The position numbers were made by a program, and so were the translations under genes. Below the pieces are notes generated by a model. It was not told where the DNA came from and searched no databases. It saw only the letters and a list, made by a program, of their open reading frames with translations. A stretch of 59,881 nucleotides of DNA, the filler included. It is 5 parts of 5 records of this genome, joined end to end, with 100 filler letters (N's around TTAATTAATTAA, not from the genome) between each part and the next. Parts side by side here need not be neighbours in the genome. Positions count along the whole stretch, not along the records: positions 40,206 to 59,881 come from SRR20825006_678; 4 more parts are not named here. One strand, written 5' to 3'. Shown one piece after another: positions 42,151 to 59,429 of the stretch; the stretch's first letter is position 1; each line of letters opens with the position of its first letter.

Positions 42151-42226
42151 CCTGACGAGATTATAAACTTTAGTTAATTTAACCAAATAGGATTGTGCAT
42201 TCATACGAAATCTTATTAGTATATAG

Positions 42227-42310
42227 CTATCCAATATTCTCGAAAATTAAACTCGCAAAATATTTCTCGAAAAAGGGACGGCATAAAGCCGTTCCGCTGT
42301 CTCTTTTTAT
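42227..42310 (+). repeat. 84-bp structured direct repeat, copy 1
   Basis: 79/84 identical to 57964-58047. Confidence 0.92.
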
Positions 42311-42348: not shown

Positions 42349-42567
42349 TTAGCCCATAGCAGAAGGCCAAATATTGTTTTTGATACAGTCTTTGATTTTA
42401 AGCATATCACCGTCAATATCATCTACGCCAAGTACTTTCCCATACTTATCAATGCCAATATAGATTAGACCACCTTCAAAATAATTGAGAAAAGCAATTA
42501 CTTCCTTTTCCATATCCAGATCTTTGGTGAGTTTCTCTTTGTATTCTATACGATTTGTTTCGGGCAT
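42349..42567 (-). pseudogene. Truncated Schlafen/AlbA_2-domain (ATP-binding protein) gene
   Basis: ETNRIEYKE, KEVIAFLN..GGLIYIGIDK.G.VLGV is an AlbA_2 N-terminus; stops after 72 aa. Confidence 0.8.
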
Positions 42568-42994: not shown

Positions 42995-43774
42995 ATGTAT
43001 ATGACTCTTAGAAAGAAAGAATTAACTTTTGTAATGCTCCTCTTTTTGTTTGCTGGTTTTAGTCAAAAGAAAATAGACAAAGATTCCTTATCAGTTAAGG
43101 ATACATCGAATATCAATTTTCAATATAAATCACTTATTATCCCTTCTGCCCTTATTGGTTATGGTCTTTTGGCCACTGAAAGTCATACTTTGATTGATTT
43201 CAATGGAGAAATTAAAGAAGAAGTAAATGAACATATTGATAAGAAGTTTACTATTGACGATATCTCTCAGTATGCTCCAGCTGTGGCAGTGTATGGTATA
43301 AATTTAGCTGGAGTTAAGGGGAGAAATAATTTAAGGGATAGAACTATTATCTTGGGGACTGCCTATTTGATTATGGGATCGAGTGTTACTGGGTTAAAAG
43401 CTATTACTAGAATAGAGAGACCCGATGGGACTTCTCGAAATTCATTCCCTTCAGGCCATACTGCCACAGCGTTTATGGGTGCTGAATTTTTATATCAAGA
43501 GTATAAAGACGTTTCTATTTGGTATGGAATTGCGGGCTATGCTGTGGCAACAGGAACAGGTTTTTTTAGGATCTATAACGACAGACATTGGTTTAGTGAT
43601 GTTATAGCTGGGGCTGGGATAGGGATTCTTAGTACTAAAATCGCTTATTGGATTCATCCCTTTATTAATAAAAAAATATTTCTCAATCATACTAAAGAAA
43701 AAAGATTTGATAAAGCATTTGCTCCATTTTACAATGGTAGGGAGATGGGTGTGGGAGCTGTGATTCGATTTTAA
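42995..43774 (+). CDS. PAP2-family phosphatase with signal peptide
   Basis: K-x6-RP, SFPSGHT, RIYNDRHWFSD. Confidence 0.92.
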   Translation: MYMTLRKKELTFVMLLFLFAGFSQKKIDKDSLSVKDTSNINFQYKSLIIPSALIGYGLLATESHTLIDFNGEIKEEVNEHIDKKFTIDDISQYAPAVAVYGINLAGVKGRNNLRDRTIILGTAYLIMGSSVTGLKAITRIERPDGTSRNSFPSGHTATAFMGAEFLYQEYKDVSIWYGIAGYAVATGTGFFRIYNDRHWFSDVIAGAGIGILSTKIAYWIHPFINKKIFLNHTKEKRFDKAFAPFYNGREMGVGAVIRF

Positions 43775-43829
43775 CTAATAAACCCGTTATACTATTTCGT
43801 TATTTCTTGAGCTTCTTGAATAGTACGCT

Positions 43830-43864
43830 CTTTAAAATAACTTTAGAATTGAGAGATATATTTG
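43830..43864 (+). promoter_or_regulatory. Regulon promoter 2 (TolC-MFP-RND operon)
   Basis: CTTTAAA-ataa-CTTTAGA-n9-TATATTTG. Confidence 0.8.
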
Positions 43865-43885
43865 TTTATCCTATAAAGTAAATTT

Positions 43886-45166
43886 GTGCGAACTATTCTT
43901 TTTTATAGCTTTTTGTTTTTGTGTACTAGTTCTATAATAGGACAAGAACAAAAGAACCTGGAATATTTTATTAATCAAGCAAAGGAACATTTGCCAAGTG
44001 TAAAGGAAATTGAAAACCTCAAACGGATAGGGGAGTTACAATATGAGGTTATCAAGGCTCAAAACAATGCATTTCAGGTCAACGCTACAACAGATGTATT
44101 AGTAGCTCCTTATTTTAATAATGATGGAAAGTTTATTGACATTACTACAAATCCTTCTAATAATGCCTATGGTTATGATGTGGGCATTACAAATGGAGGA
44201 CTTTATTCTGCACAAGTTAATATTACCAAATCCTTATTTAATAAAAAATTGTTGGATGGACTCTTATTACAAAGTAAACTAACCAATGAAGGAGTATTAC
44301 TTTCATCGGAGGCCATAGTGCATACTTTAATTAAAAACATTACTGACACCTATATACTGGCTTATCAACAACAATTAAAAATCGAATTTGCCGATGAGAT
44401 TTTAGCGGTACTTAGACAAAGACTTGATGTGGTTGCGGTATTGGTTAAAAACGGAATTCTTTCCAGTAGTGACTATTTATTGTTAAAACTTGATTTAGAT
44501 ACAAAAAATATTGAACTTCAGCAATATAGTACAGCTTTCAATACTACTATAATTCAACTGTATTCCCTATGTGGAATTACAGCTGAAAAAACAGAAAGTT
44601 TGCTCCCTCCAATATTGGATTACAAAGAGAATCCAAAAACTTTCTTTTACCTGAAAAAATATCGAAATGACAGTTTACAACTCAAGTCTGATGAGCAGGT
44701 TTTATTGAATCGGTATAAACCAAATTTGTCATTTTATGGAAATACAGGTGTTAATGCGGTGGAACTTTCACATATTAATCATAAAATTGGAGCCAGTGTG
44801 GGTTTACATCTTGACATTCCTATCTATGATGGGAACAGGCGAAAGTATATGCTGGATCAATATAAATTGAAAAAGGAAAATTTAGAAAGGTATAAGAAAA
44901 ATGATGCCGTTAAGCTGAATAATGATCTAAAGGCATTGCATAATCAGGTAGACGCCTTACAGAATCAAATGATTCTGCTTAATAAACAATTGGATCAGTA
45001 TGCCCATATCCAAGAAATCTATAAAGAAAAGTTCGTGCAGGGACAGGTTTCTATTGTTGATTATTTAAATGTGATTCAGAATTATAAATCGAACATGTAT
45101 ACCAAATTACAAGCACAAACAAATTTATGGCTTTTAAAAAGTCAGTTTAACTATACAAATTGGTAA
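43886..45166 (+). CDS. TolC-family outer membrane efflux protein
   Basis: Signal peptide, helical repeats, LDIPIYDG motif; first gene of an RND operon. Confidence 0.82.
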   Translation: MRTILFYSFLFLCTSSIIGQEQKNLEYFINQAKEHLPSVKEIENLKRIGELQYEVIKAQNNAFQVNATTDVLVAPYFNNDGKFIDITTNPSNNAYGYDVGITNGGLYSAQVNITKSLFNKKLLDGLLLQSKLTNEGVLLSSEAIVHTLIKNITDTYILAYQQQLKIEFADEILAVLRQRLDVVAVLVKNGILSSSDYLLLKLDLDTKNIELQQYSTAFNTTIIQLYSLCGITAEKTESLLPPILDYKENPKTFFYLKKYRNDSLQLKSDEQVLLNRYKPNLSFYGNTGVNAVELSHINHKIGASVGLHLDIPIYDGNRRKYMLDQYKLKKENLERYKKNDAVKLNNDLKALHNQVDALQNQMILLNKQLDQYAHIQEIYKEKFVQGQVSIVDYLNVIQNYKSNMYTKLQAQTNLWLLKSQFNYTNW

Positions 45167-45168
45167 TT

Positions 45169-46092
45169 ATGAAGATAGATATCTCAAAATTCTATTTGGT
45201 ATTCATTTTTTTGATAATAGCGATTGGATGCAATACACCTCCTGTACCTCAAAATAAAGCTAAGACCTTTGTTAGGGTTCAAACAACAACAGTTAAAAAA
45301 GGTACTATTGATCAATATCGTTTATTTAATGGAGTTACCAAATATCAGCGAAAGGAAGCTATCCGAGCCAACGTAACTGGATATATTTCTACAATCAATT
45401 TTGAGGTTGGTAATTCTATTAATAAAGGGCAAGTTTTATGCTACATAAGAACAAAAGAACAACAAGCTCTTGGAGCTGCTGTAAAAATAGATAGTTCTCT
45501 GGCAAAACTTACCATTCCTATGGATATAAAAAGTAAGGCGACTGGGGTAGTTTCCATTATAAATTATAATGAGAATAGTTATGTTTCAGAAGGGGCTATT
45601 ATAGCCACTGTTACACAACCAAATTCGTTGACTATACAAGTAAGTATTCCTTTCGATCAAAGTAAAGAAATAAACAAGGGAATGCCTTGTGAGGTTATTT
45701 TAAAAGACACCACCATCAATGCTAAAATTAGTCAACAATTGCCCATAATTGAACCTTTGACCCAAAATCAACAATTTTTAATTGAAATGCCAAAGATTGT
45801 TTTACCAGAAAGCTTAAAAGTACAGATTCGAATGTTGGGAAAAATAGCTATGAATGCGATGGTACTTCCCAAATCTGCCATACAGACTAATGAACTGCAA
45901 AATAAGTTTTGGGTTATGAAAGTTTTAAATGATTCTTTAGCTGTAAAAATTAATGTAATTCCATTATTGGAAAATGATTCTTTGGTTCAAATAAAATCAA
46001 CTATGTTAGATTATAAAGATACTATTATTATTAAGGGAGCATATCAATTACAAGATACTACTGTAGTCCGTATTGAAAATCCAGCGCCATGA
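45169..46092 (+). CDS. RND periplasmic adaptor (MFP) lipoprotein (likely start ATG 45169)
   Basis: Lipobox IAIGC, lipoyl-like half motifs, VLPKSAI; between TolC and RND genes. Confidence 0.82.
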   Translation: MKIDISKFYLVFIFLIIAIGCNTPPVPQNKAKTFVRVQTTTVKKGTIDQYRLFNGVTKYQRKEAIRANVTGYISTINFEVGNSINKGQVLCYIRTKEQQALGAAVKIDSSLAKLTIPMDIKSKATGVVSIINYNENSYVSEGAIIATVTQPNSLTIQVSIPFDQSKEINKGMPCEVILKDTTINAKISQQLPIIEPLTQNQQFLIEMPKIVLPESLKVQIRMLGKIAMNAMVLPKSAIQTNELQNKFWVMKVLNDSLAVKINVIPLLENDSLVQIKSTMLDYKDTIIIKGAYQLQDTTVVRIENPAP

Positions 46093-49000
46093 ATGTTAAC
46101 TTCGTAAAATACAAATATCCTTTTTTGATTTTGGCAATACTCATCTTAGCTGGTGGGCTTTTTTCTTACCAAAAATTAAAAACAGGATTGTTTCCGGATA
46201 TCACTTTTCCAAAGATCAAAGTAATTGCTGATGCAGGACAACAACCAGTGGATAAAATGATGACAGCGGTTACCATTCCTCTAGAAAATGCATTGAGACG
46301 AACAGAAGGATTACAATATATTAAAAGTACTACCTCTCGTGGAAGTTGTGAGATTTCCGTATTTCTAGATTGGGATATGGATATTAATATAGCTAAATCT
46401 CAAATAGAATCCTATATTAATCAATCACAGGGAAGTATTCTCCCAAACACCAATTTTTTAGTAGAGAAAATGAACCCTTCCATATTGCCAGTTATAGGCT
46501 ATTCTTTGGAAGGAGATAATTACTCTTTGGTAGATTTAAAGAAAATAGCTAAATATCAAATAAAGCCCTATTTGGCTGCAAGTCCAGGAGTTGCAGATGT
46601 GGTGGTGGTTGGGGGGAAGGAAAAAGAGTATCAGGTGGTATTGGATCCTGTAAAGTTCAATAAGTTTGGAATTGGTATTTCTACAGTTAAGAATGCTATT
46701 GTCAATGCCAATATTCTTCAATCCAATGGGTATATTGCAGATCATAATCGTTTGTATCTAACACTTACTGATAATGCCATAACTCAAAGAACCGATTTGG
46801 AAAATATCCCAATTATTAATACTTCCAGTGGATTTATTCGCTTAAAGGATATTGCTTCTATTGATATTAAAGAGGTAAAAGAATATGTTAGAATTTTGGC
46901 CAATGGGAAAAATACACCTCTTATTGCCATAGTGAAACAATCAACAGCCAATTTAATGGAGGTTACCACTGAAACAGAGAAAAAAATTGATGAATTGGCA
47001 AGCATTTTGCCCAAAGGAATTTATCTAAAACCTTGCTATAAGCAAGCCGATTTTGTAGGTGAAAGCATTCGTAGTATAAAAGATGTCCTATGGATTGGAC
47101 TTTTATTAGCATTGTTTGTTGTTGTTTATTTTTTAAAATCAATTTCAGCAAGTTTATTGGTGCTGTTTTCCATTCCTATTTCTTTATCGCTTACCTTGAT
47201 TGGTTTAGATATTATGGGTTACTCGTTTAATATTATGACCCTTGGAGCTATTGCAGCTGCAATAGGCCTGATGATAGATGACGTGGTAATTGTGATAGAA
47301 CAAATCCATAAAATTAGAGAGGAAAATCTTGAAGAATCTATTGGAGGGATTGTTCACAGAAGTATTCAATATTTATTTCCAGCAATGATAGGGTCATCTC
47401 TTAGCACATTAGTTATATTCATCCCTTTTATACTTATGACAGGAGTAGCAGGGGCTTATTTCAAAGTAATGGCCTTTACAATGGTTATTGCGCTCATTGC
47501 TTCCTTTGTCGTTTCGTGGTTGGTGTTACCCGTTTTAGCGATTTTTTTATCCAAGGGATCTCATAAAAAGAATATAAAGAGACAAAGTACCAAATGGATA
47601 CACTTTATTTTAAGGCGTCCAATTATTGGAGTTTTATTTGCTTTTTTATGTGTTTTAATTCTACTGGCTGTTCCTTCTAGATTAACCACGGGTTTTTTAC
47701 CCGAAATGGACGAGGGGAGTATTGTGTTGGATTTTAATAGTCCACCTGGTACAACCTTGGAGGAAACCAACCGAATGCTTTCAGAGGTTAATCATATATT
47801 GAACAATCAAGAAGAGGTGGAGGCGTACTCTGCTCGTATGGGAACTCAAATGGGCTTTTTTATTACGGAACCAAACCGTGGGGATTACCTCATAAAATTA
47901 AAAGATTCTAAAAATAAAACTACAACAGCCGTAGCCGATGAAATAAGACAAAAATTAGAGATGTCAATTCCGCAACTTACGGTAGATTTTGGCCAGGTTA
48001 TTGGTGATATGTTGGGAGATTTAATGAGTTCTGTACAACCAATAGAAATAAAAGTATTTGGATCGGATGTGAAAACACTTCAAATACTTTCAAAACAAAT
48101 TGCTGCTGAGATAAAACAGGTGGATGGAACTGTTGATGTAAATGATGGAGTAATTGTTGCCGGACCTACGCTCTCAATAATACCAAATACCTATACACTT
48201 TCTCAATTGGGACTTACAGCAAATGATTTACAATTACAATTACAAACCCAAATAGAAGGGATGGTAGTGAGTACTATATATGAAAACGAACAAATAGTGC
48301 CTATTCGTTTGATATATTCCAATATTAAAAATTTAGACATTGATAATATCAGGAATACTAAAATAATATTACCAAATGGATCATCAATTGCTATTGATAA
48401 AGTAGCTTCCATAACTTTAGGAAAAGGAGTGGCTGAAATTAATAGAGAAAACCAAAAATCCATGGGGGTAATTACTGCACGATTGGATCAGCGTGATCTA
48501 GGATCTGCCGTAGTGGAAATCAAGAATCTAATAACCGAAAAAATCAGTATTCCAAGTGGATATCACATAGCTTATGGGGGAGCTTATAAAGAACAACAAC
48601 AGGCATTTCAGGAATTGTTATTAATTCTAATTAGTGCTTTTTTATTAGTCTTTATGATTATTCTCTGTTTGTTTCGAAAGCTTATTATTGCTATTATGAT
48701 ACTCATTATAGGAGTGCTCGGGGTTGCAGGTTGTTTGTTAAGTCTTTTTATTACAGGAACCCCATTGAATGTTGGAAGTTATACAGGGATTATCATGATT
48801 GTTGGGATTTTAGGGGAGAACAGCATCTTTACCTATTTACAGTTTTTAGAGACAGATACAAAGTGGTCTGTTTTAAAAAGGATCGAATATGCCATAGCTG
48901 AAAGGTTGCGACCAAAGCTAATGACAACTACCGCCGCAATGATGGCTTTGATTCCTTTGGCACTTGGTATCGGAACGGGTGCACAATTACATCAACCATT

Positions 49001-49097
49001 AGCTATTGCGGTTATTGGAGGGCTACTATTTGCTTTGCCACTTTTATTAGTGGTATTGCCTACAATGCTTGAATACATTGAAAAAAAGAGAAAGTGA
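46089..49097 (+). CDS. RND efflux permease (AcrB/CusA superfamily)
   Basis: LFPDITFP, GLMIDD (TM4), FLPEMDEG, RLRPKLMT, QPLAIAVIGG; 1002 aa. Confidence 0.93.
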   Translation: MNVNFVKYKYPFLILAILILAGGLFSYQKLKTGLFPDITFPKIKVIADAGQQPVDKMMTAVTIPLENALRRTEGLQYIKSTTSRGSCEISVFLDWDMDINIAKSQIESYINQSQGSILPNTNFLVEKMNPSILPVIGYSLEGDNYSLVDLKKIAKYQIKPYLAASPGVADVVVVGGKEKEYQVVLDPVKFNKFGIGISTVKNAIVNANILQSNGYIADHNRLYLTLTDNAITQRTDLENIPIINTSSGFIRLKDIASIDIKEVKEYVRILANGKNTPLIAIVKQSTANLMEVTTETEKKIDELASILPKGIYLKPCYKQADFVGESIRSIKDVLWIGLLLALFVVVYFLKSISASLLVLFSIPISLSLTLIGLDIMGYSFNIMTLGAIAAAIGLMIDDVVIVIEQIHKIREENLEESIGGIVHRSIQYLFPAMIGSSLSTLVIFIPFILMTGVAGAYFKVMAFTMVIALIASFVVSWLVLPVLAIFLSKGSHKKNIKRQSTKWIHFILRRPIIGVLFAFLCVLILLAVPSRLTTGFLPEMDEGSIVLDFNSPPGTTLEETNRMLSEVNHILNNQEEVEAYSARMGTQMGFFITEPNRGDYLIKLKDSKNKTTTAVADEIRQKLEMSIPQLTVDFGQVIGDMLGDLMSSVQPIEIKVFGSDVKTLQILSKQIAAEIKQVDGTVDVNDGVIVAGPTLSIIPNTYTLSQLGLTANDLQLQLQTQIEGMVVSTIYENEQIVPIRLIYSNIKNLDIDNIRNTKIILPNGSSIAIDKVASITLGKGVAEINRENQKSMGVITARLDQRDLGSAVVEIKNLITEKISIPSGYHIAYGGAYKEQQQAFQELLLILISAFLLVFMIILCLFRKLIIAIMILIIGVLGVAGCLLSLFITGTPLNVGSYTGIIMIVGILGENSIFTYLQFLETDTKWSVLKRIEYAIAERLRPKLMTTTAAMMALIPLALGIGTGAQLHQPLAIAVIGGLLFALPLLLVVLPTMLEYIEKKRK

Positions 49098-49143
49098 TAA
49101 AAGGAATATTGATTTTTAAATTGAAAGAACTAACTTTAATACT

Positions 49144-49821
49144 ATGAAAATATTAATTGCAGAGGATGAATTTTCTTTACAGCAGTCTATTGCCATTTAT
49201 CTTGAAAAGCAAGGGAATGTGTGCGAAGTGGCTTCAGATTTTAATGAAGCGTCTTATAAGGTGTCACTATATGATTATGATATTGTTATACTGGATCTCA
49301 ATTTGTTGACTGGGAGTGGGATTGATATCTTGAAGCAGTTGAAGAAGGAACAGGATGCTAATACCGCTGTTATTATTATATCTGCAAATAATTCTTTGGA
49401 TGATAAATTAAAAGGTTTGGATCTCGGAGCAGATGATTATTTAACAAAACCATTTCATTTAGCGGAGCTTAATTCCCGAGTAAAGGCCATCTTAAGAAGG
49501 CAAAAGTTTGGAGGAGGTACAATTGTTGTTTTTAACGAGATTAAAATAGATACTGATGGACATTTGGTTACAGTGGGAGAAAAAGTGATTGTACTCACTA
49601 AAAAAGAATATGATTTGTTACTTTTTTTTGTAACCAATAAAAATAGGGTACTATCCAAGGAAATTATAGCAGAACACCTCTGGGGAGACAACAGTGATTT
49701 AATTGACAATTTTGATTTTATTTATGTGCATGTCAATAATTTACGAAAAAAACTCACGAAAGAAGGAGCAAAATATATTAAAACAGCCTATGGAAGTGGG
49801 TACAAATTCATAGATGATTAA
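49144..49821 (+). CDS. OmpR/PhoB-family response regulator
   Basis: ILIAED, ILDLNL phospho-Asp, GADDYLTKPF, winged helix VHVNNLRKKL...TAYGSGY. Confidence 0.95.
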   Translation: MKILIAEDEFSLQQSIAIYLEKQGNVCEVASDFNEASYKVSLYDYDIVILDLNLLTGSGIDILKQLKKEQDANTAVIIISANNSLDDKLKGLDLGADDYLTKPFHLAELNSRVKAILRRQKFGGGTIVVFNEIKIDTDGHLVTVGEKVIVLTKKEYDLLLFFVTNKNRVLSKEIIAEHLWGDNSDLIDNFDFIYVHVNNLRKKLTKEGAKYIKTAYGSGYKFIDD

Positions 49822-51078
49822 ATGAATAAGAATAGGAAAAAGGTAGGTCTCATACAAAAGACTTCCAATATTTTTATAATGGTAAGCTTACTGTTAATGT
49901 CTTTAAGTTCAATTGCGCTTTATTTTTATTTACGAAATATTTTGGAAGTGGAAATTGAGGAGCAGTTGTATTCTACAGCTGCTAGGATTGAAAGTTCACT
50001 GGAAGCGGGTAAAAATCCATATTCATTGCCGCCAGTAGTAGAAGTAGCTACTTCCAATAAATCTCTTCCTGATATTTTGAAAGATACCTTAATTTATGAC
50101 CCTTCACAAGATGAGATAGAACTTTTTAGGGAACTTTCAAGTTTTAAAAAAATCAATAATATTAATTATAAAATCACAGTGCGTGATCTTGTAGTGGAAT
50201 CTGAAAATATATTGATGGCCATAATTATTTCCTATTTATTAATTATTATAACGGTATTTGTAGTGTTGTATTACTTTAACAAAGTAGGAAATTCCTATTT
50301 GTGGAAACCATTTTTTAATACGTTGGAACAAATAAAAGAATTTTCTCTATCCACTAAAGAACCAGTAGCACTGTCAATCTCTAATATTAGAGAGTTTAGT
50401 GAACTGAATACCCAAGTAAAAATACTTACTGATAAAGTAAGGGGAGATTATAACAATCTAAAGCAATTTACAGAGGATGTTTCCCATGAATTACAAACTC
50501 CCTTGGCCATCATGCAGGTTAAAATAGAGAGTGTTATAAATGATGCACCATTAAGCAACCAACAATATGATCAGTTGACATCCATTCAAAAAGATATTAA
50601 GCGAGTAACTCAAATGAATAAGGGATTGACACTGCTTACAAAAATAGAGAACAATCAATTTATAAACCCAAAACAAGTTTCATTGACTTCTATCGTAGAG
50701 GGGAATATTGCTAATTTTAAAGAGATATTCCAACAAGATATTCAGTTCGTAAATGAAAATGAGCTTTTGGTGACTATGGATTACCATTTGGCAGAAATTC
50801 TATGTAATAATTTAATTTCCAATGCTATTAAGCATCACATAGGTAGTGGGGATATAGTTATTGAAATTACTAAAGAGCATTTATCTGTATGTAATAAGGG
50901 GGAGAAACCAATTTTACATGCAGATCGGATATTCAATCGTTTTTATAAAGAAAATGAGAGTGTGAAATCCACTGGTTTAGGGCTTGCCATTGCAAAGAAG
51001 ATTTGCGATATGTATAATTTTAAGCTTACCTATACATTCGAAAAAGGATTCCATATATTTTTAGTTCAATTTTCATAA
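49822..51078 (+). CDS. Sensor histidine kinase (2 TM, short periplasmic domain)
   Basis: SHELQTPL H-box, NLISNAIKH N-box, IFNRFY, TGLGLAI. Confidence 0.93.
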   Translation: MNKNRKKVGLIQKTSNIFIMVSLLLMSLSSIALYFYLRNILEVEIEEQLYSTAARIESSLEAGKNPYSLPPVVEVATSNKSLPDILKDTLIYDPSQDEIELFRELSSFKKINNINYKITVRDLVVESENILMAIIISYLLIIITVFVVLYYFNKVGNSYLWKPFFNTLEQIKEFSLSTKEPVALSISNIREFSELNTQVKILTDKVRGDYNNLKQFTEDVSHELQTPLAIMQVKIESVINDAPLSNQQYDQLTSIQKDIKRVTQMNKGLTLLTKIENNQFINPKQVSLTSIVEGNIANFKEIFQQDIQFVNENELLVTMDYHLAEILCNNLISNAIKHHIGSGDIVIEITKEHLSVCNKGEKPILHADRIFNRFYKENESVKSTGLGLAIAKKICDMYNFKLTYTFEKGFHIFLVQFS

Positions 51079-51119
51079 ATAACTAAGTGTTAACCACTAA
51101 GTAATAATTTAATTTTCCA

Positions 51120-51154
51120 CTTTAAACCATCTTTAAATTTGCTTTTTAAGTTTA
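51120..51154 (+). promoter_or_regulatory. Regulon promoter 3 (OM barrel)
   Basis: CTTTAAA-ccat-CTTTAAA-n9-TAAGTTTA. Confidence 0.75.
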
Positions 51155-51171
51155 TCCAAAATTCAGACATA

Positions 51172-53595
51172 ATGGATAAAATAAAGATACGATTGTTGTC
51201 TTCCTTTTTGGCAATATTTGGTGTTTGCGAAGCGCAGGAAAAAATAACAATTTCTGGAAAAGTAAAAGATAATCAAACCAATGAAGTATTACCTTTTACT
51301 TCTGTAACAGTAAATAAAGAAACTTCTGAGACGTTTGTAGTAGGAACAATTACAGATGAAGCGGGTAATTTTCAGATAGAAGGATTGGCATTGGGAAATT
51401 ATAGTATAAACATCTCTTTTGTAGGCTATGAGCAATCGCAACGGATGATTTATGCAAGCGGAATAAATACCACTTTTAATCTAGGAGTAATTCCGTTGAA
51501 TCCCACATCCGAAACTTTGGAAGCGGTGGAGGTTTCAGTAAAAAGAGAAGTGACCAATGCTGCATTAAGTAAAAAAAGTTTTTCACTTACCGATAATATT
51601 GCTAATTCTGGTGGCTCGGTATTGGAAGCTATGAAATCAATGCCCGGGGTTACTTTTGATCAAGATGGAAAAGTGTTGTTGAGAGGGAGTGATAAGGTTA
51701 CTGTGCTTATAGATGGAAAACAGTCCAGTTTAACTGGGTTTGGAAACCAAAAAGGATTGGGAAATATTCCAGTTTCAAATATTGATAGGATAGAGATCAT
51801 TAATAATCCTTCGGCTAAGTATGATGCCAATGGCTTGGCGGGAATTATTAATATCATCTATAAAGATGAGCAAGAAAGAGGATTAAATGGAACTGTAGGA
51901 CTTTCATCTGGGATAGGGGCTTTCAGTAAGCGAAAGGAGGATCTCCCGATCGATCTGGGTTCTTATTATATGAATCCGAAATTAATTCCAAGCATAGATT
52001 TTAACTATAGAACTAAAAAGTTCAATTACTTTTTTCAGTCAGAATTTATCATTCAAGAAGCGCTTCCCAATAATGAGTATACCACTAGATTCTATAATGA
52101 TGGAAGGAAGATTACATCCCAAGTTCCTGAGAACAGAAAACAGTTCAGGGTTATCTTAAAAGGAGGTATTGATTGGAATTTTAATGAGAATAATAGGTTT
52201 ACTTTTTCAGGGATGTACGATAGAGAAAAACATATAGATACCTCTCAAGTAGCTTTTATCAACCTAGCCTCCAGTCAAAGAGAACGCTATTATAACTGGA
52301 AAGAAGAAGAGATAACAAGTAACATTAATGTGGTAGCAGATTATGAACATTCATTTTCGCAGCCTGGGCAAACCTTTAATGCAAACCTACAATATACAAG
52401 AGGTTTGGAGGATGAAAGTTATTTTTTGAATGATAGTTCTTCCATTCGGTTGGGGAGGGATGTTACGCATATAAAAGCGGTAGAACATACCCTGGGAGTG
52501 TCAGCTAATTACGCACAGGCACTAGCAGCTGGGAAGTTGGAGGTGGGCACCAAAGTTAGAGTTCGCCGTCTTCCTGTGGATTATATTGTTGAAAGAGGAA
52601 ATAATTCAATTATTTATGAAGGGCTCGGGGATTATTCCGATTGGGGAGAGAATCTCTTTGCAGGGTATGCAAACTTTGTATATGAAAGAGCACATTTTGA
52701 AATAGAAGCAGGTTTAAGAGCTGAGTATACCGAGGTTTTTTATACTCTCGACCCTACAAATATCTACTACAATTCCAACGACGATTACGACTATTTTAAA
52801 TTTTTTCCAAGTGTACGATATACTCAAAAGCTGAACCAAAATAACAATATATCCCTTTTTTATAATCGTCGAATTGATCGTCCTGGAGAAGCAGAACTCA
52901 GGATTTTTCCAAAGTATGATGACCCTGAACTCTTAAAAGTAGGGAATCCCTATTTACGTCCTCAATACACAGAATCTATAGAATTGGCACATAAATTTTC
53001 ATGGACCACAGGTTCTTTATTTTCCGCTTTATATCACAAAAAGATAACCGATGAATATCGAAGAATTTATAGTATTGATGATTCGAATCCAACGTATGAT
53101 ATTATCAATAGAATATATCAAAATACAGGAAAGACGTTGTCAAGCGGAATAGAAATACTTTTTAATCAGGATATTTCCTCTTATTGGGAATTGGGTATGA
53201 GTGCAAATTTTTTTAGAAATAAGGTAGCAGCTTATACTGGAACTGTCTTGTTTCCCTATGAAAGATCCTTTTATATAGAAGAATCTAAGGCAAATGCTAC
53301 TATTTTAAAACTAACCAATGAATTTCAGCTGCCTTGGGAGTTACAATTTCAAGTGGTAGGGCTTTATTATTCACCAAAAAATATACCGCAAGGAAAGGAG
53401 CTTTCTCGTTCTTCGGTAGATATTGGAGTGAAGAAAGTCGTATGGAATAAAAAAGGAGAGGTTGCTTTTTCAATGAGTGATATTTTTAATACTTATGGCA
53501 TTCGACAAGAAATAAACGAAAGCGATTTTACTGCCTTATATCAGAATTATTATGAGACACAGATTGCGAGAATATCTTTTAAATATAAGTTCTAA
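51172..53595 (+). CDS. TonB-dependent-receptor-like outer membrane beta-barrel (likely start ATG 51172)
   Basis: Signal peptide, carboxypeptidase-regulatory-like domain, plug (IDRIEIINNPSAKYDA.G.AGIINI), GNPYLRP, terminal Phe. Confidence 0.88.
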   Translation: MDKIKIRLLSSFLAIFGVCEAQEKITISGKVKDNQTNEVLPFTSVTVNKETSETFVVGTITDEAGNFQIEGLALGNYSINISFVGYEQSQRMIYASGINTTFNLGVIPLNPTSETLEAVEVSVKREVTNAALSKKSFSLTDNIANSGGSVLEAMKSMPGVTFDQDGKVLLRGSDKVTVLIDGKQSSLTGFGNQKGLGNIPVSNIDRIEIINNPSAKYDANGLAGIINIIYKDEQERGLNGTVGLSSGIGAFSKRKEDLPIDLGSYYMNPKLIPSIDFNYRTKKFNYFFQSEFIIQEALPNNEYTTRFYNDGRKITSQVPENRKQFRVILKGGIDWNFNENNRFTFSGMYDREKHIDTSQVAFINLASSQRERYYNWKEEEITSNINVVADYEHSFSQPGQTFNANLQYTRGLEDESYFLNDSSSIRLGRDVTHIKAVEHTLGVSANYAQALAAGKLEVGTKVRVRRLPVDYIVERGNNSIIYEGLGDYSDWGENLFAGYANFVYERAHFEIEAGLRAEYTEVFYTLDPTNIYYNSNDDYDYFKFFPSVRYTQKLNQNNNISLFYNRRIDRPGEAELRIFPKYDDPELLKVGNPYLRPQYTESIELAHKFSWTTGSLFSALYHKKITDEYRRIYSIDDSNPTYDIINRIYQNTGKTLSSGIEILFNQDISSYWELGMSANFFRNKVAAYTGTVLFPYERSFYIEESKANATILKLTNEFQLPWELQFQVVGLYYSPKNIPQGKELSRSSVDIGVKKVVWNKKGEVAFSMSDIFNTYGIRQEINESDFTALYQNYYETQIARISFKYKF

Positions 53596-53598
53596 CCA

Positions 53599-53633
53599 CT
53601 TAAACATTCCTTTAGAATTAGTTCCTAATTTTA
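53599..53633 (+). promoter_or_regulatory. Regulon promoter 4 (PepSY-like)
   Basis: CTTAAAC-attc-CTTTAGA-n9-TAATTTTA. Confidence 0.7.
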
Positions 53634-53661
53634 ATATTATTAACTAAAAATAAAACTTATA

Positions 53662-54114
53662 ATGAAAGTATTAAAGTTATTATTTATGGTGGTCTCAGTA
53701 ACAGGGTTAAGTGCCTTTGCCATTAAAAAAGAGGTGCCAGAAAAAGTAGAAGAAGCATTTAATAAAAAATTCCCTGAAGCTAAGGCCGTACATTGGGATC
53801 AGGAATCTGATCATGAATGGGAAGCAGCATTTAAATATGGTGGACATCGGTATTCAGCCAATTTCATGGATGATGGTACGTGGAAAGAAACAGAACATGA
53901 CATTAAGTTGAAGCAATTACCAGACAGGGTTCGAATTTCCTTATTTCAAAAGTTCCAAAATTATAAAATTAAAGAGCAAGAAATTTCGGAAACAACTAAT
54001 GGTATTCTATACGAATGTGAAATTAAAAAAGGAAAATCCAAATTGGAAGTAGCTTTTGATGAAAAAGGAGAATTAAAGAAAAAAGAAGTGTTAACAGGAG
54101 AAGATGAAGATTAG
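53662..54114 (+). CDS. PepSY-like (BLIP-like) periplasmic protein
   Basis: Signal peptide; VPEKVEEAFNKKFP.A..V.W and LPDRV tandem repeats; F...G motifs. Confidence 0.85.
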   Translation: MKVLKLLFMVVSVTGLSAFAIKKEVPEKVEEAFNKKFPEAKAVHWDQESDHEWEAAFKYGGHRYSANFMDDGTWKETEHDIKLKQLPDRVRISLFQKFQNYKIKEQEISETTNGILYECEIKKGKSKLEVAFDEKGELKKKEVLTGEDED

Positions 54115-54134
54115 GTTTTGATTGTTTCGTATTG

Positions 54135-54170
54135 ATGGGATTTGAATTTATTTTCAAATCCCATTTTTTT
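54135..54170 (+). terminator. Intrinsic terminator
   Basis: ATGGGATTTGAA-loop-TTCAAATCCCAT-TTTTTT. Confidence 0.85.
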
Positions 54171-54194
54171 GCAATAATCGGAATGAAATACAAA

Positions 54195-54229
54195 CTTTAA
54201 TTTTCCTTTAGATTCTGGTACTAATTTTA
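54195..54229 (+). promoter_or_regulatory. Regulon promoter 5 (LTA synthase-DAG kinase)
   Basis: CTTTAAT-tttc-CTTTAGA-n9-TAATTTTA. Confidence 0.75.
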
Positions 54230-54256
54230 CCGCTTAAATTTAGATGCAGTAATTTT

Positions 54257-56236
54257 ATGTGGTATTGTCCCCCTAAACGTTTTGAATTATTGAAGGTTTT
54301 TGTTCTTTTTTTTATAAGCCTTTCATTTGTTGTAAGATCAATTTTTTTATTGTGGAATTTAGGTGAGGTGGATGTACATTTTATTGATATAATACGAATT
54401 TTTATAACAGGTTTGTTTTATGACTTGGGAACAATTTCGTTTTTTACCCTTCCGTATTTGCTGTATTTAATGATTATTCCTAATAAATGGATTGGGAGTT
54501 TATTTGATCGAATAGCTACCTATACAGGTTTTACCATAGGAATATTGATGCTCTATTTTTCATTTTTTGCAGAAATTACATTCTGGGATGAATTCCATAG
54601 AAGATTTAATTTTATAGCAGTAGATTATCTAATCTATACCTATGAGGTAGTTCAAAATATAAATGAGTCCTATCCCTTACCGATTTTAATTTCTAGCATC
54701 TTGTTATTGGCTATTGGTACCTTATATTTAATATATAAATGCAAGGTTTTTAAACATATATTTCTGACGCAAATAACATTTAAAAAGAAAGTATTATTTT
54801 CTTTACCTTGGATTGTAATAGCCATTTGTTTTAGCATGTTTGTTTCCAATGAAGGTGCTGATTGGTCTAGAAACCGGTACAATAATGAACTTTCTAAGGC
54901 GGGGATTTATTCCTTTTTTGCCGCCTTTAGAAATAATGCACTTTCTTACACGGAATTTTACAAAACCCTTACAGAAAAAGAATCTCATGCTTTGGTTAGC
55001 AAACAATACGAAGCTTCTGGAAAATTGATTAATCCGAAAAAAAATCCAATATATAGAAATATTTCACGGCATGATTCACTTCAAAGTGAAATAACCCCCA
55101 ATGTTATATTTATTTGTGTGGAGAGTTTAAGTGCAAAATTCTTAGGAGTATTTGGCAATGAAAAGGGGCTTACTCCGAACTTGGATAAGCTTTCTAAGGA
55201 TGGGGTTTTGTTTTCAAATCTATATGCTACAGGAACCAGGACGGTTCGTGGAATGGAAGCCATAACCTTATCGATTCCACCAACACCTGGACGAAGTATT
55301 GTGAAAAGAGAACGGAATACGGGAATGTTTACTATTGGTGAAGTGTTTAAAAATAAAGGGTATACCCGTAACTTCTATTATGGGGGAGATGGCTATTTCG
55401 ATAATATGAATACGTATTTTAGTGGTAATGGTTTTAATATTATAGATAGAGGAAGAAATTTTTTGATTGGAGATGAGATAGAAACCATTAGGACGAATAT
55501 TAATGATGAAGAAGTAAGTTTTGAAAATGCTTGGGGTGTATGCGATGAGGATCTTTTTAGTAAAGTCTTACAACAAGCAGATTTGCAGACTGTTAATGGA
55601 ACACCTTTTTTTGACTTTATCATGACTACTTCTAATCATAAACCTTATACCTATCCTAATGGAAAAATAGACATCCCGTCGGGGAGTGGTCGCGATGGAG
55701 CCGTTAAATATACAGATTATGCGATTGGAAAGTTTATTGAAAAAGCTAAAACAAAGCCGTGGTTTAAAAATACTGTATTTGTGATTATGAGTGATCATTG
55801 TGCCAGTAGTGCTGGAAGGTGGGAATTAGATGTTAAGAATTATCATATTCCTGCTATTATCTACAACCTGCCTAATAAACACTCAGAAAAGGTTGAGAAA
55901 CTCTGTTCTCAAATCGATCTTTTCCCAACACTATTCGGTTATTTTAATTGGGAGTATAGTTCAAACTTCTTTGGGCAGGATATCACAAATAAAGCTTCAG
56001 ATAGGGAAAGGGCTTTTATTGGAAATTATAGAAAACTTGGACTTTTAAAAGGAAATGATGTAATGATCCTTGGAGACCAAAAAACTGCTAATTTTTATAC
56101 ATGGGATGATAAAACCAATGAACTGACGAAACAAACATTATCCAATGACTATTTAAATCAGACCATATCTTTTTATCAAACTGCCGATGATTTATATACC
56201 AGCGGTAAGCTCACTTTAAAAAGTTTAAACAAATGA
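54257..56236 (+). CDS. LTA synthase/phosphoglycerol transferase-family protein (sulfatase fold)
   Basis: N-terminal TM helices; VESLS, GTRTVRGMEA (catalytic Thr), SNHKPY, SDH. Confidence 0.88.
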   Translation: MWYCPPKRFELLKVFVLFFISLSFVVRSIFLLWNLGEVDVHFIDIIRIFITGLFYDLGTISFFTLPYLLYLMIIPNKWIGSLFDRIATYTGFTIGILMLYFSFFAEITFWDEFHRRFNFIAVDYLIYTYEVVQNINESYPLPILISSILLLAIGTLYLIYKCKVFKHIFLTQITFKKKVLFSLPWIVIAICFSMFVSNEGADWSRNRYNNELSKAGIYSFFAAFRNNALSYTEFYKTLTEKESHALVSKQYEASGKLINPKKNPIYRNISRHDSLQSEITPNVIFICVESLSAKFLGVFGNEKGLTPNLDKLSKDGVLFSNLYATGTRTVRGMEAITLSIPPTPGRSIVKRERNTGMFTIGEVFKNKGYTRNFYYGGDGYFDNMNTYFSGNGFNIIDRGRNFLIGDEIETIRTNINDEEVSFENAWGVCDEDLFSKVLQQADLQTVNGTPFFDFIMTTSNHKPYTYPNGKIDIPSGSGRDGAVKYTDYAIGKFIEKAKTKPWFKNTVFVIMSDHCASSAGRWELDVKNYHIPAIIYNLPNKHSEKVEKLCSQIDLFPTLFGYFNWEYSSNFFGQDITNKASDRERAFIGNYRKLGLLKGNDVMILGDQKTANFYTWDDKTNELTKQTLSNDYLNQTISFYQTADDLYTSGKLTLKSLNK

Positions 56237-57114
56237 AAAAAATTCATTTCATTGTAAATCCAATTGCAGGAAAAGGGAATAAACATATTGATGAAACGCT
56301 TTTGAGCAGCTATTTTTCAAAAGACCATTATGAGGTGAGAGTTAAGAGTACAAAGTATAAAGGTGAGGCTGTAGTGCTGACCCAAGAATCTGTTAGCCAA
56401 GGTGCCACTATTATTGTAGCATGTGGTGGTGATGGAACCGTTAATGAGGTAGCTTCTGTCTTAGTGAATTCTCAATGCATCTTAGGGATTGTACCCATTG
56501 GTTCTGGAAATGGATTGGCTTCTCATTTGAAAATACCTAAAGATATTGAAAAGGCACTTTTACTGATTCAGCATGAGATAACAACCAGAATTGATGTAGG
56601 AAGCTGCAATGGCACTTATTTTTTTAGTAATACAGGCTTTGGATTTGATGCAAAAGTAATACGAAGGTATGAAGGTTTTACTGGGCGTACCCTTAATAGT
56701 TATTTAAAAGCTTGTGTTGTTACTTTTTTTAATAATAAGAATGAAGATTCTCTTGTAGTAACCATTAACGGAACAAAAAAGTATAAAGACCCATTTTTAA
56801 TTTTTGCATCAAACTCCAATGAATTGGGCTATAATTTTAGTCTTACGCCAAAAGCATCACTACAAGATGGTCTTTTGGATGTTCTTATAATCCCAAAGAT
56901 GCAGAAGCTACAGTTAGTATGGTTTGGGGTAATGTTAATTTTTAAAAGACATCTAGGTTTAAATGGAGTGGTTAGTTATCAAACAAATAAGCTAGATATA
57001 ATAAGAAATGAAGGAAGGTATTTTGAATCTCAAATGGATGGTGAATATAAAACTTTAGAAGAAATAGAGGTATCTATTGAATTATTGAAAGACTCAATTA
57101 TAGTAATCAATTAA
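56233..57114 (+). CDS. Diacylglycerol/lipid kinase (YegS/DgkB family)
   Basis: NPIAG, GGDGTVNEV, GSGNGLA, DGE; overlaps the LTA synthase stop. Confidence 0.92.
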   Translation: MKKIHFIVNPIAGKGNKHIDETLLSSYFSKDHYEVRVKSTKYKGEAVVLTQESVSQGATIIVACGGDGTVNEVASVLVNSQCILGIVPIGSGNGLASHLKIPKDIEKALLLIQHEITTRIDVGSCNGTYFFSNTGFGFDAKVIRRYEGFTGRTLNSYLKACVVTFFNNKNEDSLVVTINGTKKYKDPFLIFASNSNELGYNFSLTPKASLQDGLLDVLIIPKMQKLQLVWFGVMLIFKRHLGLNGVVSYQTNKLDIIRNEGRYFESQMDGEYKTLEEIEVSIELLKDSIIVIN

Positions 57115-57126
57115 TATTCACTTAAA

Positions 57127-57161
57127 CTTTAGAATGTCTTTAGAATCAAGATTTACTTTTA
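57127..57161 (+). promoter_or_regulatory. Regulon promoter 6 (second PAP2)
   Basis: CTTTAGA-atgt-CTTTAGA-n9-TACTTTTA. Confidence 0.8.
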
Positions 57162-57227
57162 GTAGCTTAATCCTAAGAAATACTCATGCCTATACTATTA
57201 AAACTACATAACTGATAGCGTAAATTT

Positions 57228-57812
57228 ATGTGTTCTCTTTTTAATTCCCCTACCAAAACCTTCCATTTTAAAATTCAGAGGTGCTTTATATTTTTTGTTT
57301 GTCTTATTTGCTTTTGGAATTTGAGATTGTATTCACAAGAAAAAGCGATTGAAATCTCAGGAGATATTCTTTTGTATGCTATGCCTACTATTTCATTAGG
57401 ATCTACCCTTGTCATTGGTGATAAACAAGGAACTTGGCAGTTTCTAAAAGGTTTTGCCGTAAACGAAGCCATGACTTTTGGGTTAAAACTAGCCATTAGT
57501 AAGCCACGACCCAATGAAGCTAATAATAATTCTTTTCCATCAGGGCATACCTCCACGACATTTCAGAGTGCGGCTTTTATTCAAAAACGATATGGCTGGA
57601 AATATGGAATACCTGCTTATGCATTAGCTGGGTTCACTGGATTTAGTAGGATTTACGCCGATCAGCATGATATACTGGATGTTTTAGCGGGAGCAGTCAT
57701 AGGTGTTGGAAGTAGTTATTTATTTACGACTGAATATCAAAAGAAACATATGGAAGTTACATTTACTTCCAATCGAGATAACATATTACTGGGATTTAAT
57801 TATAAGTTTTAA
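57228..57812 (+). CDS. PAP2-family phosphatase (LpxE-like)
   Basis: KLAISKPRP, SFPSGHT, SRIYADQHDILD; ends YKF. Confidence 0.88.
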   Translation: MCSLFNSPTKTFHFKIQRCFIFFVCLICFWNLRLYSQEKAIEISGDILLYAMPTISLGSTLVIGDKQGTWQFLKGFAVNEAMTFGLKLAISKPRPNEANNNSFPSGHTSTTFQSAAFIQKRYGWKYGIPAYALAGFTGFSRIYADQHDILDVLAGAVIGVGSSYLFTTEYQKKHMEVTFTSNRDNILLGFNYKF

Positions 57813-57963
57813 CACCAATTTAGCCATATAAATAAGGTAGAATATTTAAAACCAATACTATATATTTAACATATTAGTTTAATATAAATTCATCCAATCT
57901 TATGATGTGGGTCACTTATTCCTTTTTAGCATCAAATTATACATGACAACATATTAAATATAT

Positions 57964-58047
57964 CTATCCAATATTTCCGAAAGTTAAACTCGCAAAATAT
58001 TTCTCGGAAAAGGGACGGCATAAAGCCGTTCCGTTGTCTCTTTTTAT
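57964..58047 (+). repeat. 84-bp structured direct repeat, copy 2 (5' part of a long hairpin)
   Basis: 79/84 identical to 42227-42310. Confidence 0.92.
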
Positions 58048-58108
58048 TCCGTTTCCTTTCCACTCCAAAATTTTGCCTTCCGTTTGGGTTATGCTCAAAT
58101 ATTGTTTA

Positions 58109-58130
58109 ACCTGCCTGTCGGTAGACAGGT
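58109..58130. repeat. Short palindromic REP-like element
   Basis: ACCTGCCTG-TCGG-TAGACAGGT, resembling the CCTGCCTGCCGGCAGGCAGG-type Bacteroidetes repeat. Confidence 0.55.
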
Positions 58131-58147
58131 CTAAAAATTTCATTATT

Positions 58148-58555
58148 ATGGAAACAAAAACAAAAGCAAGCGGTGTAGCAAAAAAACAAAGTGCTACCGT
58201 TAAAAAGGACGTTCAAAAGAAATTGACCCAAGAGGCAGTTGAGAAAACTGTAAAAGCTGAAACGAAGGTTGTTTCTCAAAAGCCTGAAATTAGTCTGGAT
58301 GATCGCATCCAGAAGTTTGAAAAGTTACGAGGTTTGGCAACGCAGCGGGAACGCTTGGCAGAGACCTTAACCGAACTCACCAAATTCAATTACAATCAGG
58401 ATGGTTCGAGTAGTTTCTTTATTCGAGATTCCCGTCATCTGGAATTTAAAACCACCAATTCAAATCTTATCAAATTGGTGACCTCGCATTTACAATCCAC
58501 TTTAGAACAGCGTAAAGCGGAAATTGAACAGCAGATTGTTCAATTTGAGTTGTAA
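58148..58555 (+). CDS. Hypothetical mobile-element protein (135 aa, likely start ATG 58148)
   Basis: Lys-rich N-terminus, coiled coil, FKTTNSNLI; A-rich translation-initiation region; followed by a terminator. Confidence 0.7.
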   Translation: METKTKASGVAKKQSATVKKDVQKKLTQEAVEKTVKAETKVVSQKPEISLDDRIQKFEKLRGLATQRERLAETLTELTKFNYNQDGSSSFFIRDSRHLEFKTTNSNLIKLVTSHLQSTLEQRKAEIEQQIVQFEL

Positions 58556-58576
58556 AACTTAATTTTCTATTTATTA

Positions 58577-58612
58577 AAAAGCCTACTCGCAAGAGTGGGC
58601 TTTTCTTTTTTT
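58577..58612 (+). terminator. Intrinsic terminator
   Basis: AAAAGCCTACTC-GCAA-GAGTGGGCTTTT then CTTTTTTT. Confidence 0.85.
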
Positions 58613-58631
58613 AATCTAAAATTTTAACATT

Positions 58632-59429
58632 ATGTATTTAAATCATTTACAACAGGACGAGATTTTTATTCCATCAGCAATAAAATCTTTTGAAAGTATT
58701 ACAGGAATTAAGTCCCGTAGAGGGCTTGAAAATGTCATTGTATCAAATGGCAAAATTGTTAATGTGGTATCCAAAAGTTATGGGCATATTCCCAATGAAC
58801 TATTTTTTCATAAAGCAGAACAACTTCTGGTAGATGCCAATCTAAAGTATCGTAAACGAACCATCAATCGAAATGACAGGTCGTTTGTGATGGATTTTAT
58901 CATCGACAATGACAATCTATTTGAACTTAAAAATAAACAAGACCAAATACTACCCATGCTCCGTTTTAAGAATTCTTACGATGGGAGTGAAAAAACGTCG
59001 GGACATTTTGGATTTTTTAGACAAATTTGTTCAAATGGACTTCATATAGCCCAGTCAAAAATTGCCTTTTCCATTAGACACACTAAAAACAGTACGGATT
59101 TGATCATGCCTGAATTGGAATGGCTCTTTGAGAAGTTTATGGATAATGAGTTTTATAGTATTTCAAATCAATTTCTACAAATGAGCGCTGCTTCCATAAA
59201 TGATGAAGAAGCCTTTGTTTTCGAAGTGCTGAATCGTATAAAATTATTTCAGTATGCGTGTAGTGCTAAAAACAATAATCCTTCAAAAAAAGCAAGAATG
59301 GTACTAGATACCCTGTATAAAGAATCCATACGCCTTGGTGAATCACCAAATTTATGGCTTGGCTTGTGTCAGCTATTAGCAGAAAAGAAGCAGAATTACA
59401 AAAAGTCATTTCAAAAATGGCAGATTTAA
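58632..59429 (+). CDS. DUF932 domain protein, C-terminus probably replaced
   Basis: VVSKSYGHIPN, FKNSYDGS, GFFRQICSNGL, IRH motifs typical of DUF932. Confidence 0.82.
   Translation: MYLNHLQQDEIFIPSAIKSFESITGIKSRRGLENVIVSNGKIVNVVSKSYGHIPNELFFHKAEQLLVDANLKYRKRTINRNDRSFVMDFIIDNDNLFELKNKQDQILPMLRFKNSYDGSEKTSGHFGFFRQICSNGLHIAQSKIAFSIRHTKNSTDLIMPELEWLFEKFMDNEFYSISNQFLQMSAASINDEEAFVFEVLNRIKLFQYACSAKNNNPSKKARMVLDTLYKESIRLGESPNLWLGLCQLLAEKKQNYKKSFQKWQI

Follow-up and report, generated by a model that had tools for sequence, protein, structure and literature searches.

Single-stranded DNA (ssDNA) promoters allow enterobacterial plasmids to express anti-defense and establishment genes before the incoming strand is copied, and they have so far been defined through Frpo similarity and a sigma-70 consensus. 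Frpo1, Frpo2 and Frpo3 of the F plasmid and ssi of ColIb-P9 are long imperfect hairpins on the template strand, in the stem of which the promoter boxes are rebuilt. Here we compare with these systems a hairpin lying at 57964-58104 in a 59,881-nt stretch of Bacteroidota DNA (the window, by which we mean the whole stretch analyzed), bracketed by a PAP2 gene ending at 57812 and a 135-aa open reading frame (ORF) starting at 58148, with a DUF932 gene from 58632. The original prediction, drawn from the window alone, offered two alternatives: an ssDNA promoter or priming signal of a conjugative leading region, or a structured leader RNA or attenuator. The comparative evidence favors the former, because the hairpin covaries, -33 and -7 boxes lie on its minus-strand arm, their spacing depends on the fold, SSB, ParB and DUF932 genes follow, and the relaxase is co-oriented. 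We consider it probable that the hairpin is a Frpo-like ssDNA promoter of Bacteroidota conjugative elements, which would be active only on single-stranded DNA and switch on arrival genes immediately upon entry into a new cell.

Like the F and ColIb-P9 hairpins, the members of this family occur in several copies per element, stand ahead of ssb and of a gene for a ParB-like protein, and point in the same direction as the relaxase operon; Frpo2, for example, precedes ssb, yfjA and yfjB according to PMC9849209. In contrast, there is no sequence similarity, since blastn against 72,556 PLSDB plasmids, a collection in which F-type plasmids are assumed to be present, returned no match at E <= 1e-5. 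The boxes also differ (-33 TTTG and -7 TAnnTTTG instead of TTGACA and TATAAT), and the family element is shorter and AT-rich, with a phylum-wide invariant apical core and fixed mismatches. Moreover, in many lineages a bulge of 6-20 nt in the non-template arm restores canonical spacing only in the fold, and the family, known from sequence alone, resides on integrative elements with MobB relaxases rather than on plasmids. Family members would thus be functional analogues of Frpo/ssi, not sequence relatives. The ssoA and ssoU elements of rolling-circle plasmids are likewise single-stranded hairpins with promoter-like boxes that RNA polymerase reads into RNA, but they make a short primer and no genes follow them, whereas our family is associated with no rolling-circle replicon and has start codons within tens of nucleotides in 53 of 64 lineages.

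The candidates of Samuel et al. 2024 (PMC11541004) rest on the same concept, with hairpins that act as promoters ahead of leading-region genes in the transferred strand. According to the portion of that article available to us, the data set included MOB type B, and Frpo was sought by BLAST to five known sequences together with a sigma-70 consensus, an approach unable to detect the Bacteroidota family; no word starting with "Bacteroid" occurs in the main text as accessible. Judging by titles, abstract openings and term counts, none of the publications retrieved on Frpo or single-stranded promoters together with Bacteroidota describes such an element in the phylum.

All members of the family have in common two invariant blocks, ACGGCATAA and TTATTCCGTTTCC, flanking a variable apex whose length ranges from about 15 to about 75 nt. 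In these blocks, ACGG pairs with CCGT and ATAA with TTAT, with a fixed C.T mismatch and an adjoining fixed three-base bubble, and a CAAAAG/CTTTTG helix comes next on the outside. The arms beyond this core are wholly different between lineages, and yet their complementarity is kept. As in Frpo, a long conserved imperfect hairpin is therefore found across the family, the window copy alone being weak. The features of that copy are as follows.

57957-58112, minus strand: full element, a long imperfect hairpin of ~155 nt, its extent taken from BLAST and nhmmer matches and alignments A2/A3; by analogy, the minus strand is the one proposed to fold and be transferred
57969-57974: left side of helix P1 (CAATAT), pairing with 58099-58104 (ATATTG); A3 pairs 18-24/162-171
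57979-57986, minus strand: -7-like box TAACTTTC, matching TAnnTTTG at 5/6 specified positions
57985-57989: left side of helix P2 (TAAAC), pairing with GTTTG at 58082-58086 in the RNAalifold consensus
57993-58002: left side of helix P3 (CAAAAT .. TTT), pairing with 58067-58075
58006-58012: left side of helix P4 (GGAAAAG), pairing with CTTTCCA at 58056-58062; the duplex bearing the -33 element
58007-58010, minus strand: -33-like element, TTTC in the window copy, A3 columns 59-62, 20 nt from the -7-like box
58015-58023: left core ACGG-C-ATAA, pairing with TTAT-T-CCGT at 58044-58052 with the fixed C.T mismatch
58024-58043: variable apical segment, site of two alternative inner hairpins proposed earlier
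58044-58056: right core TTATTCCGTTTCC, invariant in A3
58093-58104, plus strand: putative mRNA start region, placed by the fold geometry on the opposite stretch just past the -7 box
58148-58555, plus strand: first downstream gene, 135 aa, no family match
58632-59429, plus strand: DUF932 gene (Pfam PF06067, E 2.5e-15)

The left core is invariant in 53/53 aligned sequences and is found in distant relatives too. Compensatory changes among homologues, the check that the original prediction called for, were indeed found: on the 53 alignable copies, RNAalifold returned five helices in which 7/25 pairs are compensatory. A 36-pair structure has 96.1% of its cells paired in these copies, as against 30-52% when the partners are slid by 1-3 columns, and its 75 double-change cells compare with 20.6 +/- 5.4 after shuffling (0/500 shuffles reach 75) and 4-19 in the slid versions. 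While P1 is 90-98% paired with one-sided changes only, pairs in the inner helices switch on both sides. Pair 39/144 of P2 is AU in 49 copies, GC in three and CG in one; 7/9 pairs of P3 show both-side changes, such as UA 36 / CG 16 and CG 36 / UA 16; and in P4 pair 59/122 is CG in 43 and GC in eight, and pair 61/120 AU in 49 and CG in three. Across 62 lineage representatives, the left and right arms of the same element form a duplex of -18.5 kcal/mol on average, compared with -10.3 for arms taken from different lineages. A lineage's own arm is the best partner in 24/62 and among the top three in 33/62, the poor ranks being mostly those of Flavobacteriaceae-type copies, whose arms are similar and weaker. 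A distant Chitinophagaceae-type member has a fold z of -6.95, with 0/200 shuffles equal or better. Under DNA parameters, the minus strand has the stabler fold in 88/101 instances and 57/64 lineages, a preference whose source is the excess of purine-purine (186) over pyrimidine-pyrimidine (29) mismatches. In the L172 variant, the core halves are exact reverse complements, so the profile matches on both strands.

This consensus recasts the helices originally read from the window. The outermost pair, CAATATTT (57969-76) with AAATATTG (58097-104), is present and complementary, and its CAATAT/ATATTG helix is conserved in the family, with the one-sided changes noted for P1; GCAAAAT (57992-98) with ATTTTGC (58070-76) is likewise present and is backed by the consensus of the 53 copies. 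AACTC (57987-91) does face GGGTT (58086-90) in the window, with one G.T, but the family pair is shifted to TAAAC/GTTTG. Similarly, CGGAA (58005-09) and TTCCG (58047-51) are present and complementary, yet the family consensus replaces them with GGAAAAG (58006-12)/CTTTCCA (58056-62) and ACGG (58015-18)/CCGT (58049-52). As for the apex, AAGGGACGGC (58010-19) can pair with GTTGTCTCTT (58033-42) through three G.T, and the competing pairing of GGGACGGC with GCCGTTCC (58025-32) also exists. This pair of exclusive folds is not conserved, however: a switchable core is confined to the sub-lineage of the window, the apex varying in sequence and length elsewhere.

Taken alone, the window copy folds only marginally better than chance in these predictions, with z from -1.12 to -2.31 against shuffled controls. 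As RNA, the plus strand reaches -27.7 kcal/mol (z -2.31, 3/200 shuffles equal or better) and the minus strand a z of -1.12 (23/200); as ssDNA, the minus strand reaches -16.0 kcal/mol (z -1.43, 17/200) and the plus strand -15.6 kcal/mol (z -2.07, 5/200). Just outside the outer helix, GTTTAAC at 58104-58110 is the perfect complement of GTTAAAC at 57983-57989 in the left arm, overlapping the -7-like box. When folded as minus-strand DNA, the window copy adopts this pairing in place of the outer helix, and the GTTTAA stretch is almost invariant among Flavobacteriaceae-type copies.

The primary sigma factor of Bacteroidetes is described, in the accessible part of PMC7366714, as recognizing TTTG near -33 and TAnnTTTG near -7. 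On the minus strand, the CAAAAG of the conserved core reads CTTTTG and supplies a -33 TTTG, the -33-like position being TTTG (or TTG) in 93 of the 101 instances. Past this core TTTG, the minus-strand left arm carries a perfect TAnnTTTG in 43/101 instances and a 5-of-6 match in 21 more, which is to be compared with 0/101 perfect boxes in the equivalent plus-strand arm. The minus-strand TAnnTTTC that had been noticed in both window copies is there (TAACTTTC at 57979-86, TAATTTTC in copy 1). The "n" positions of the box vary freely (TACC, TATC, TAAC, TACA, TAAA, TATT, TAAT and others), and it thus resembles a protein-recognized box rather than a paired RNA segment. In the minus-strand fold, the -7 box often forms an internal loop between helices, position 2 being unpaired in 70% while the flanks are paired in 70% (upstream) and 58% (downstream). 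Boxes for the host primary sigma factor are therefore found on the non-template arm of the stem, as in Frpo.

The spacing of the boxes depends on the path along which it is counted. Along the box-bearing arm, the spacer between TTTG and the -7 box is 19-43 nt, and falls within 17-22 nt in 17 of the 41 evaluable lineages. Counted along the paired opposite arm, following the predicted fold of minus-strand DNA, the spacer comes to 16-22 nt in 33/41 and 19-20 nt in 18/41, the surplus bases of the box-bearing arm being bulged out. In many lineages, the spacer would therefore be unusable in duplex DNA and canonical only in the predicted hairpin.

The complete element in genome G028 carries, all on one strand, tRNA-Leu, a hairpin, a ParB-like gene, a second hairpin, then DUF932, SSB, DUF6876, a small ORF, MobB (a relaxase matching NF041495 with 406 bits) and MobC (the coupling protein), followed by cargo, tra genes and an integrase. 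In G001, the genome nearest to the window, a third copy lies beyond inserted cargo and stands before two SSB genes. A MobB relaxase occurs within 40 kb on the contig of 23 element clusters, and in every one of them it is downstream on the same strand; seven further genomes fall outside these 23 (three without a MobB hit, one split across contigs and three with partial element matches and no MobB). One transposon of the Dyadobacter type has its element and DUF932 gene oriented convergently with the tra operon. In a small mobilizable element of the Flavobacterium type, no ORF comes directly after the hairpin, which lies 1.2 kb upstream, on the same strand, of the MobC_2 gene preceding the relaxase gene. 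In F-type systems, as stated in the available portions of PMC11541004 and PMC9849209, the relaxase enters last and the leading genes are templated by the transferred strand, which makes these genes co-oriented with the relaxase operon.

In the mechanism we propose, the strand complementary to the downstream genes (minus) would enter the recipient single-stranded and fold into a long imperfect hairpin. Its 3' arm would serve as the non-template strand of a sigma-ABfr-type promoter, with the -33 TTTG within the invariant paired core and the -7 TAnnTTTG in a mismatched bubble, and its 5' arm as the template, so that RNA polymerase would travel from apex to base and then out along the template strand. 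The product would be the mRNA of the genes just downstream (ParB-like, DUF932, SSB, DUF6943), in the window that of the 135-aa gene and then DUF932, with a predicted 5' untranslated region of ~45-55 nt. This RNA may also prime synthesis of the complementary strand, and conversion to duplex would dissolve the hairpin, ending expression by this route. The structure, boxes, geometry and gene context are observations, and transfer of the minus strand and its transcription are inferences. The evidence leaves evenly balanced a broader proposal, that of a phylum-wide class of ssDNA promoters in which the -33 and -7 boxes for sigma-ABfr are split across a hairpin, often bulge-corrected and competent only when folded, which would make an entry-on/replication-off switch for the ParB-like, DUF932, SSB and DUF6943 genes of integrative conjugative and mobilizable elements, with the invariant mismatched core as docking site for a further factor. 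If so, this would be the first such system outside promoters of the Proteobacteria-type sigma-70.

Were this reading to hold, the strategy would have an independent evolutionary origin in the principal conjugative elements of a major phylum, and the family would provide a signature in sequence and structure for finding leading regions and the transferred strand in Bacteroidota elements. It would also flag DUF932, DUF6943, DUF6876 and ParB-like proteins as early-acting establishment or anti-defense candidates, and supply Bacteroidota genetics with a compact part for expression at entry only. The bulge-corrected spacing amounts to a rule, open to direct testing, on how RNA polymerase reads a folded template.

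Several findings weigh against the ssDNA promoter. The 36-pair structure was built from the same, related sequences, and its counts overstate their independence; many of the purine-purine mismatches sit in the shared core and hence are not independent either. A wobble asymmetry between the strands was not found, single mismatches being 8 G.T versus 7 A.C. The minus-strand ssDNA fold of the window copy is weak (z -1.43) and its boxes read TTTC-N20-TAACTTTC, with C replacing the consensus G in both; close relatives likewise carry TAnnTTTC, and copy 2 of the window, the full element, may be a weak member of the family. Flavobacteriaceae-type copies keep their 20-nt spacer in the double-stranded form, where the boxes could therefore drive leftward transcription as well. 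No ORF lies directly downstream in 11/64 lineages; in one of them, in genome G152, the element faces the relaxase operon across a DUF3408 gene on the opposite strand. Finally, the strand is assigned for MobB-type elements by analogy with other MOB families, the literature on nick site and transfer direction of Bacteroides conjugative transposons giving no usable statement of the transferred strand in the portion available (PMC5729914).

Some of these findings fit a priming signal only (ssi or sso-like), in which RNA polymerase or primase would be recruited for a short primer and there would be no mRNA promoter. Such a signal would be expected to have the same hairpin, boxes and leading-region position, it would accommodate the 11 lineages just mentioned, the G152 element among them, and Masai and Arai are said to have found in 1997 that Frpo itself makes primer RNA. 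We nevertheless consider it unlikely because of what follows the hairpin. A same-strand ORF begins within 200 nt past the core in 53/64 lineages, at a median of 69 nt, as against 15/64 in the opposite direction; there are up to three copies per element, each preceding a gene; and the same few gene families recur. When 46 downstream ORF pieces were scanned with Pfam (7/53 were excluded, their first ATG lying inside the arm), ParB_N was found in 8, SSB in 6, DUF6943 in 5, DUF932 in 2, GIY-YIG in 1 and a weak RadC in 1, with 23 unmatched. The five lineages with DUF6943 directly after the hairpin are L090, L114, L142, L162 and L170, which places DUF6943, with DUF932 and DUF6876, among the candidate families for early establishment or anti-defense.

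A structured RNA on the plus strand, that is, a leader or intercistronic element governing stability, processing, termination or translation of ParB/DUF932/SSB transcripts, appears quite improbable, although covariation is blind to strand and, for the window copy, it is the plus strand that has the slightly better scores. The element does lie 20-50 nt before start codons, and read-through from an upstream ParB-like gene could carry it. However, when ~95 nt to either side of the core were scanned without bias in 64 lineage representatives, perfect -7 boxes turned up in the minus-strand left arm of 30/64 and the minus-strand right flank of 3/64, but in 0/64 anywhere on the plus strand, which counts against the leader RNA or attenuator of the original prediction. 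It is the antisense box, with its free "n" positions, that is conserved, and bulges that restore its spacing have no obvious meaning for an RNA. Moreover, with RNA parameters the plus strand is the less stable in 79/101 instances, there is no Rfam match, and the end-most copy, ~200 nt away from a tRNA gene, has none of the element's genes upstream of it.

An ordinary leftward promoter in duplex DNA on the minus strand (for an antisense RNA or across the joint of an excised circle), with the palindromic core as operator, would suit the TTTG-N20-TAnnTTTG of Flavobacteriaceae-type copies and the end-most copy, which faces out from the element end. We judge it very unlikely, since the duplex spacer is a non-canonical 25-43 nt in many lineages, the long lineage-specific complementarity of the arms would be unneeded, a leftward ORF exists in only the 15/64 lineages mentioned above, and internal copies would run antisense to ParB. 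A folded single-stranded recombination site (an attC analogue) or cargo-capturing hot spot, to which the 15.7-kb cargo between the two window copies, a truncated copy ending at the apex (copy 1) and a G001 cargo with three tyrosine recombinase genes just upstream of the third copy might point, is highly improbable, because no recombinase or integrase is consistently adjacent, the boxes and downstream start codons would be left unexplained, the two copies of the G028 element have no intervening cargo, and homologous recombination between conserved copies suffices for the pattern. The recombinase genes are consecutive and lie between DUF932 and the third hairpin copy (L047:2334-5577; G001:C1 212334-215577).

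Two further candidates were rejected. A rho-independent terminator for the PAP2 gene upstream does not fit an apical stem that lacks conservation, and an oriT does not fit the presence of two or three copies in each element.

The hairpin belongs to a widespread and apparently undescribed family of DNA elements found on Bacteroidota conjugative elements. G001 contains at least 10 copies (74-100% identity, spanning window ~57957-58112) together with 11 matches to the MobB relaxase model, and carries many related integrative elements. In this genome, a locus near-identical to that of the window (G001:C2) follows it from 44740 to 59364 and diverges outside these limits; no relaxase lies close to it. 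The element is present in 22/151 genomes of the family to which the window belongs, sampled as one genome per genus, and many of these 22 have two same-strand copies ~2.05 kb apart. When a collection was scanned with a 15-nt motif taken from the alignment (the right core plus two bases), at least 126 loci came back, and nhmmer confirmed 68 of the matches listed, which span several orders. By public titles, the confirmed loci among the matches listed include Flavobacteriaceae genera, Chryseobacterium, Epilithonimonas, Sphingobacterium, Chitinophagaceae, Dyadobacter, Prolixibacteraceae, Paludibacteraceae and one Chlorobiota bin; the named records are marine, soil, aquatic and clinical-culture-collection isolates and varied metagenome bins. 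A strict two-block pattern occurred in 11 of 401 genomes sampled phylum-wide and in 0 of ~300 from other classes, a reversed control giving 0. Rfam yielded 0 hits at gathering score in the whole window, only chance hits to unrelated families at E <= 10 in 57800-58300, and 0 hits to the element in 20 diverse related loci. Among four sequencing runs recorded as, or presumed to be, RNA, a metatranscriptome contig (167 nt, depth 2) covers 57858-58021, and a compost contig is a diverged relative of the element; neither reveals a start, a strand or transcription.

The window holds a second, incomplete copy.

42221-42310, plus strand: copy 1, a 90-nt direct repeat of 57958-58047 with 93% identity, comprising the left arm and apex only

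Past 42310, copies 1 and 2 are unrelated. As originally proposed, copy 1 retains both inner folds, with one G.U becoming G-C, but it lacks the right arm and so cannot form the nested hairpin; it is a truncated remnant, a dead half-copy. It adjoins a fragment of an AlbA_2/Schlafen-type gene (72-aa N-terminal part, 42349-42567, minus strand), a full-length 456-aa version of which is found inside the G028 element. The 12-mer CAAATATTGTTT from the right end of copy 2 recurs at 42369-42380, at a plausible distance from the left arm of copy 1, yet within the AlbA_2 coding fragment, and could reflect chance, microhomology at a recombination junction or a last trace of the right arm.

Copies 1 and 2 are separated by a cargo of 15-15.7 kb (genes 42995-57812), which is an envelope-remodeling and efflux module. 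Its genes encode PAP2, an OEP/HlyD/AcrB (RND) efflux pump, a response regulator and histidine kinase, an outer-membrane beta-barrel, a PepSY-like protein, a 659-aa sulfatase-family protein weakly similar to phosphoglycerol transferases, a diacylglycerol kinase and a second PAP2. Conserved copies offer natural substrates when elements recombine with one another, which would explain a cargo between copies; Frpo1 and Frpo2 copies were noted as possible recombination substrates in the accessible part of PMC9849209.

The window itself consists of contigs chained by N runs; a join was read at 40086-40213, and the piece with the element starts near 40214. Housekeeping genes at 1-40 kb, being on separate contigs (or across masked stretches), are thus not shown to adjoin the mobile-element piece. 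A 112-nt dispersed repeat, "D1," at 40086-40213 and also at 8871-8998, 16577-16704 and 24402-24529, was rejected, since the copy read consists of N runs around a short TTAATTAATTAA linker. Degenerate direct repeats, four overlapping 54-nt copies that are 65-76% identical to the reference copy, occupy 18790-18934, with an aldo/keto reductase gene on one side and an NADH dehydrogenase-type gene on the other.

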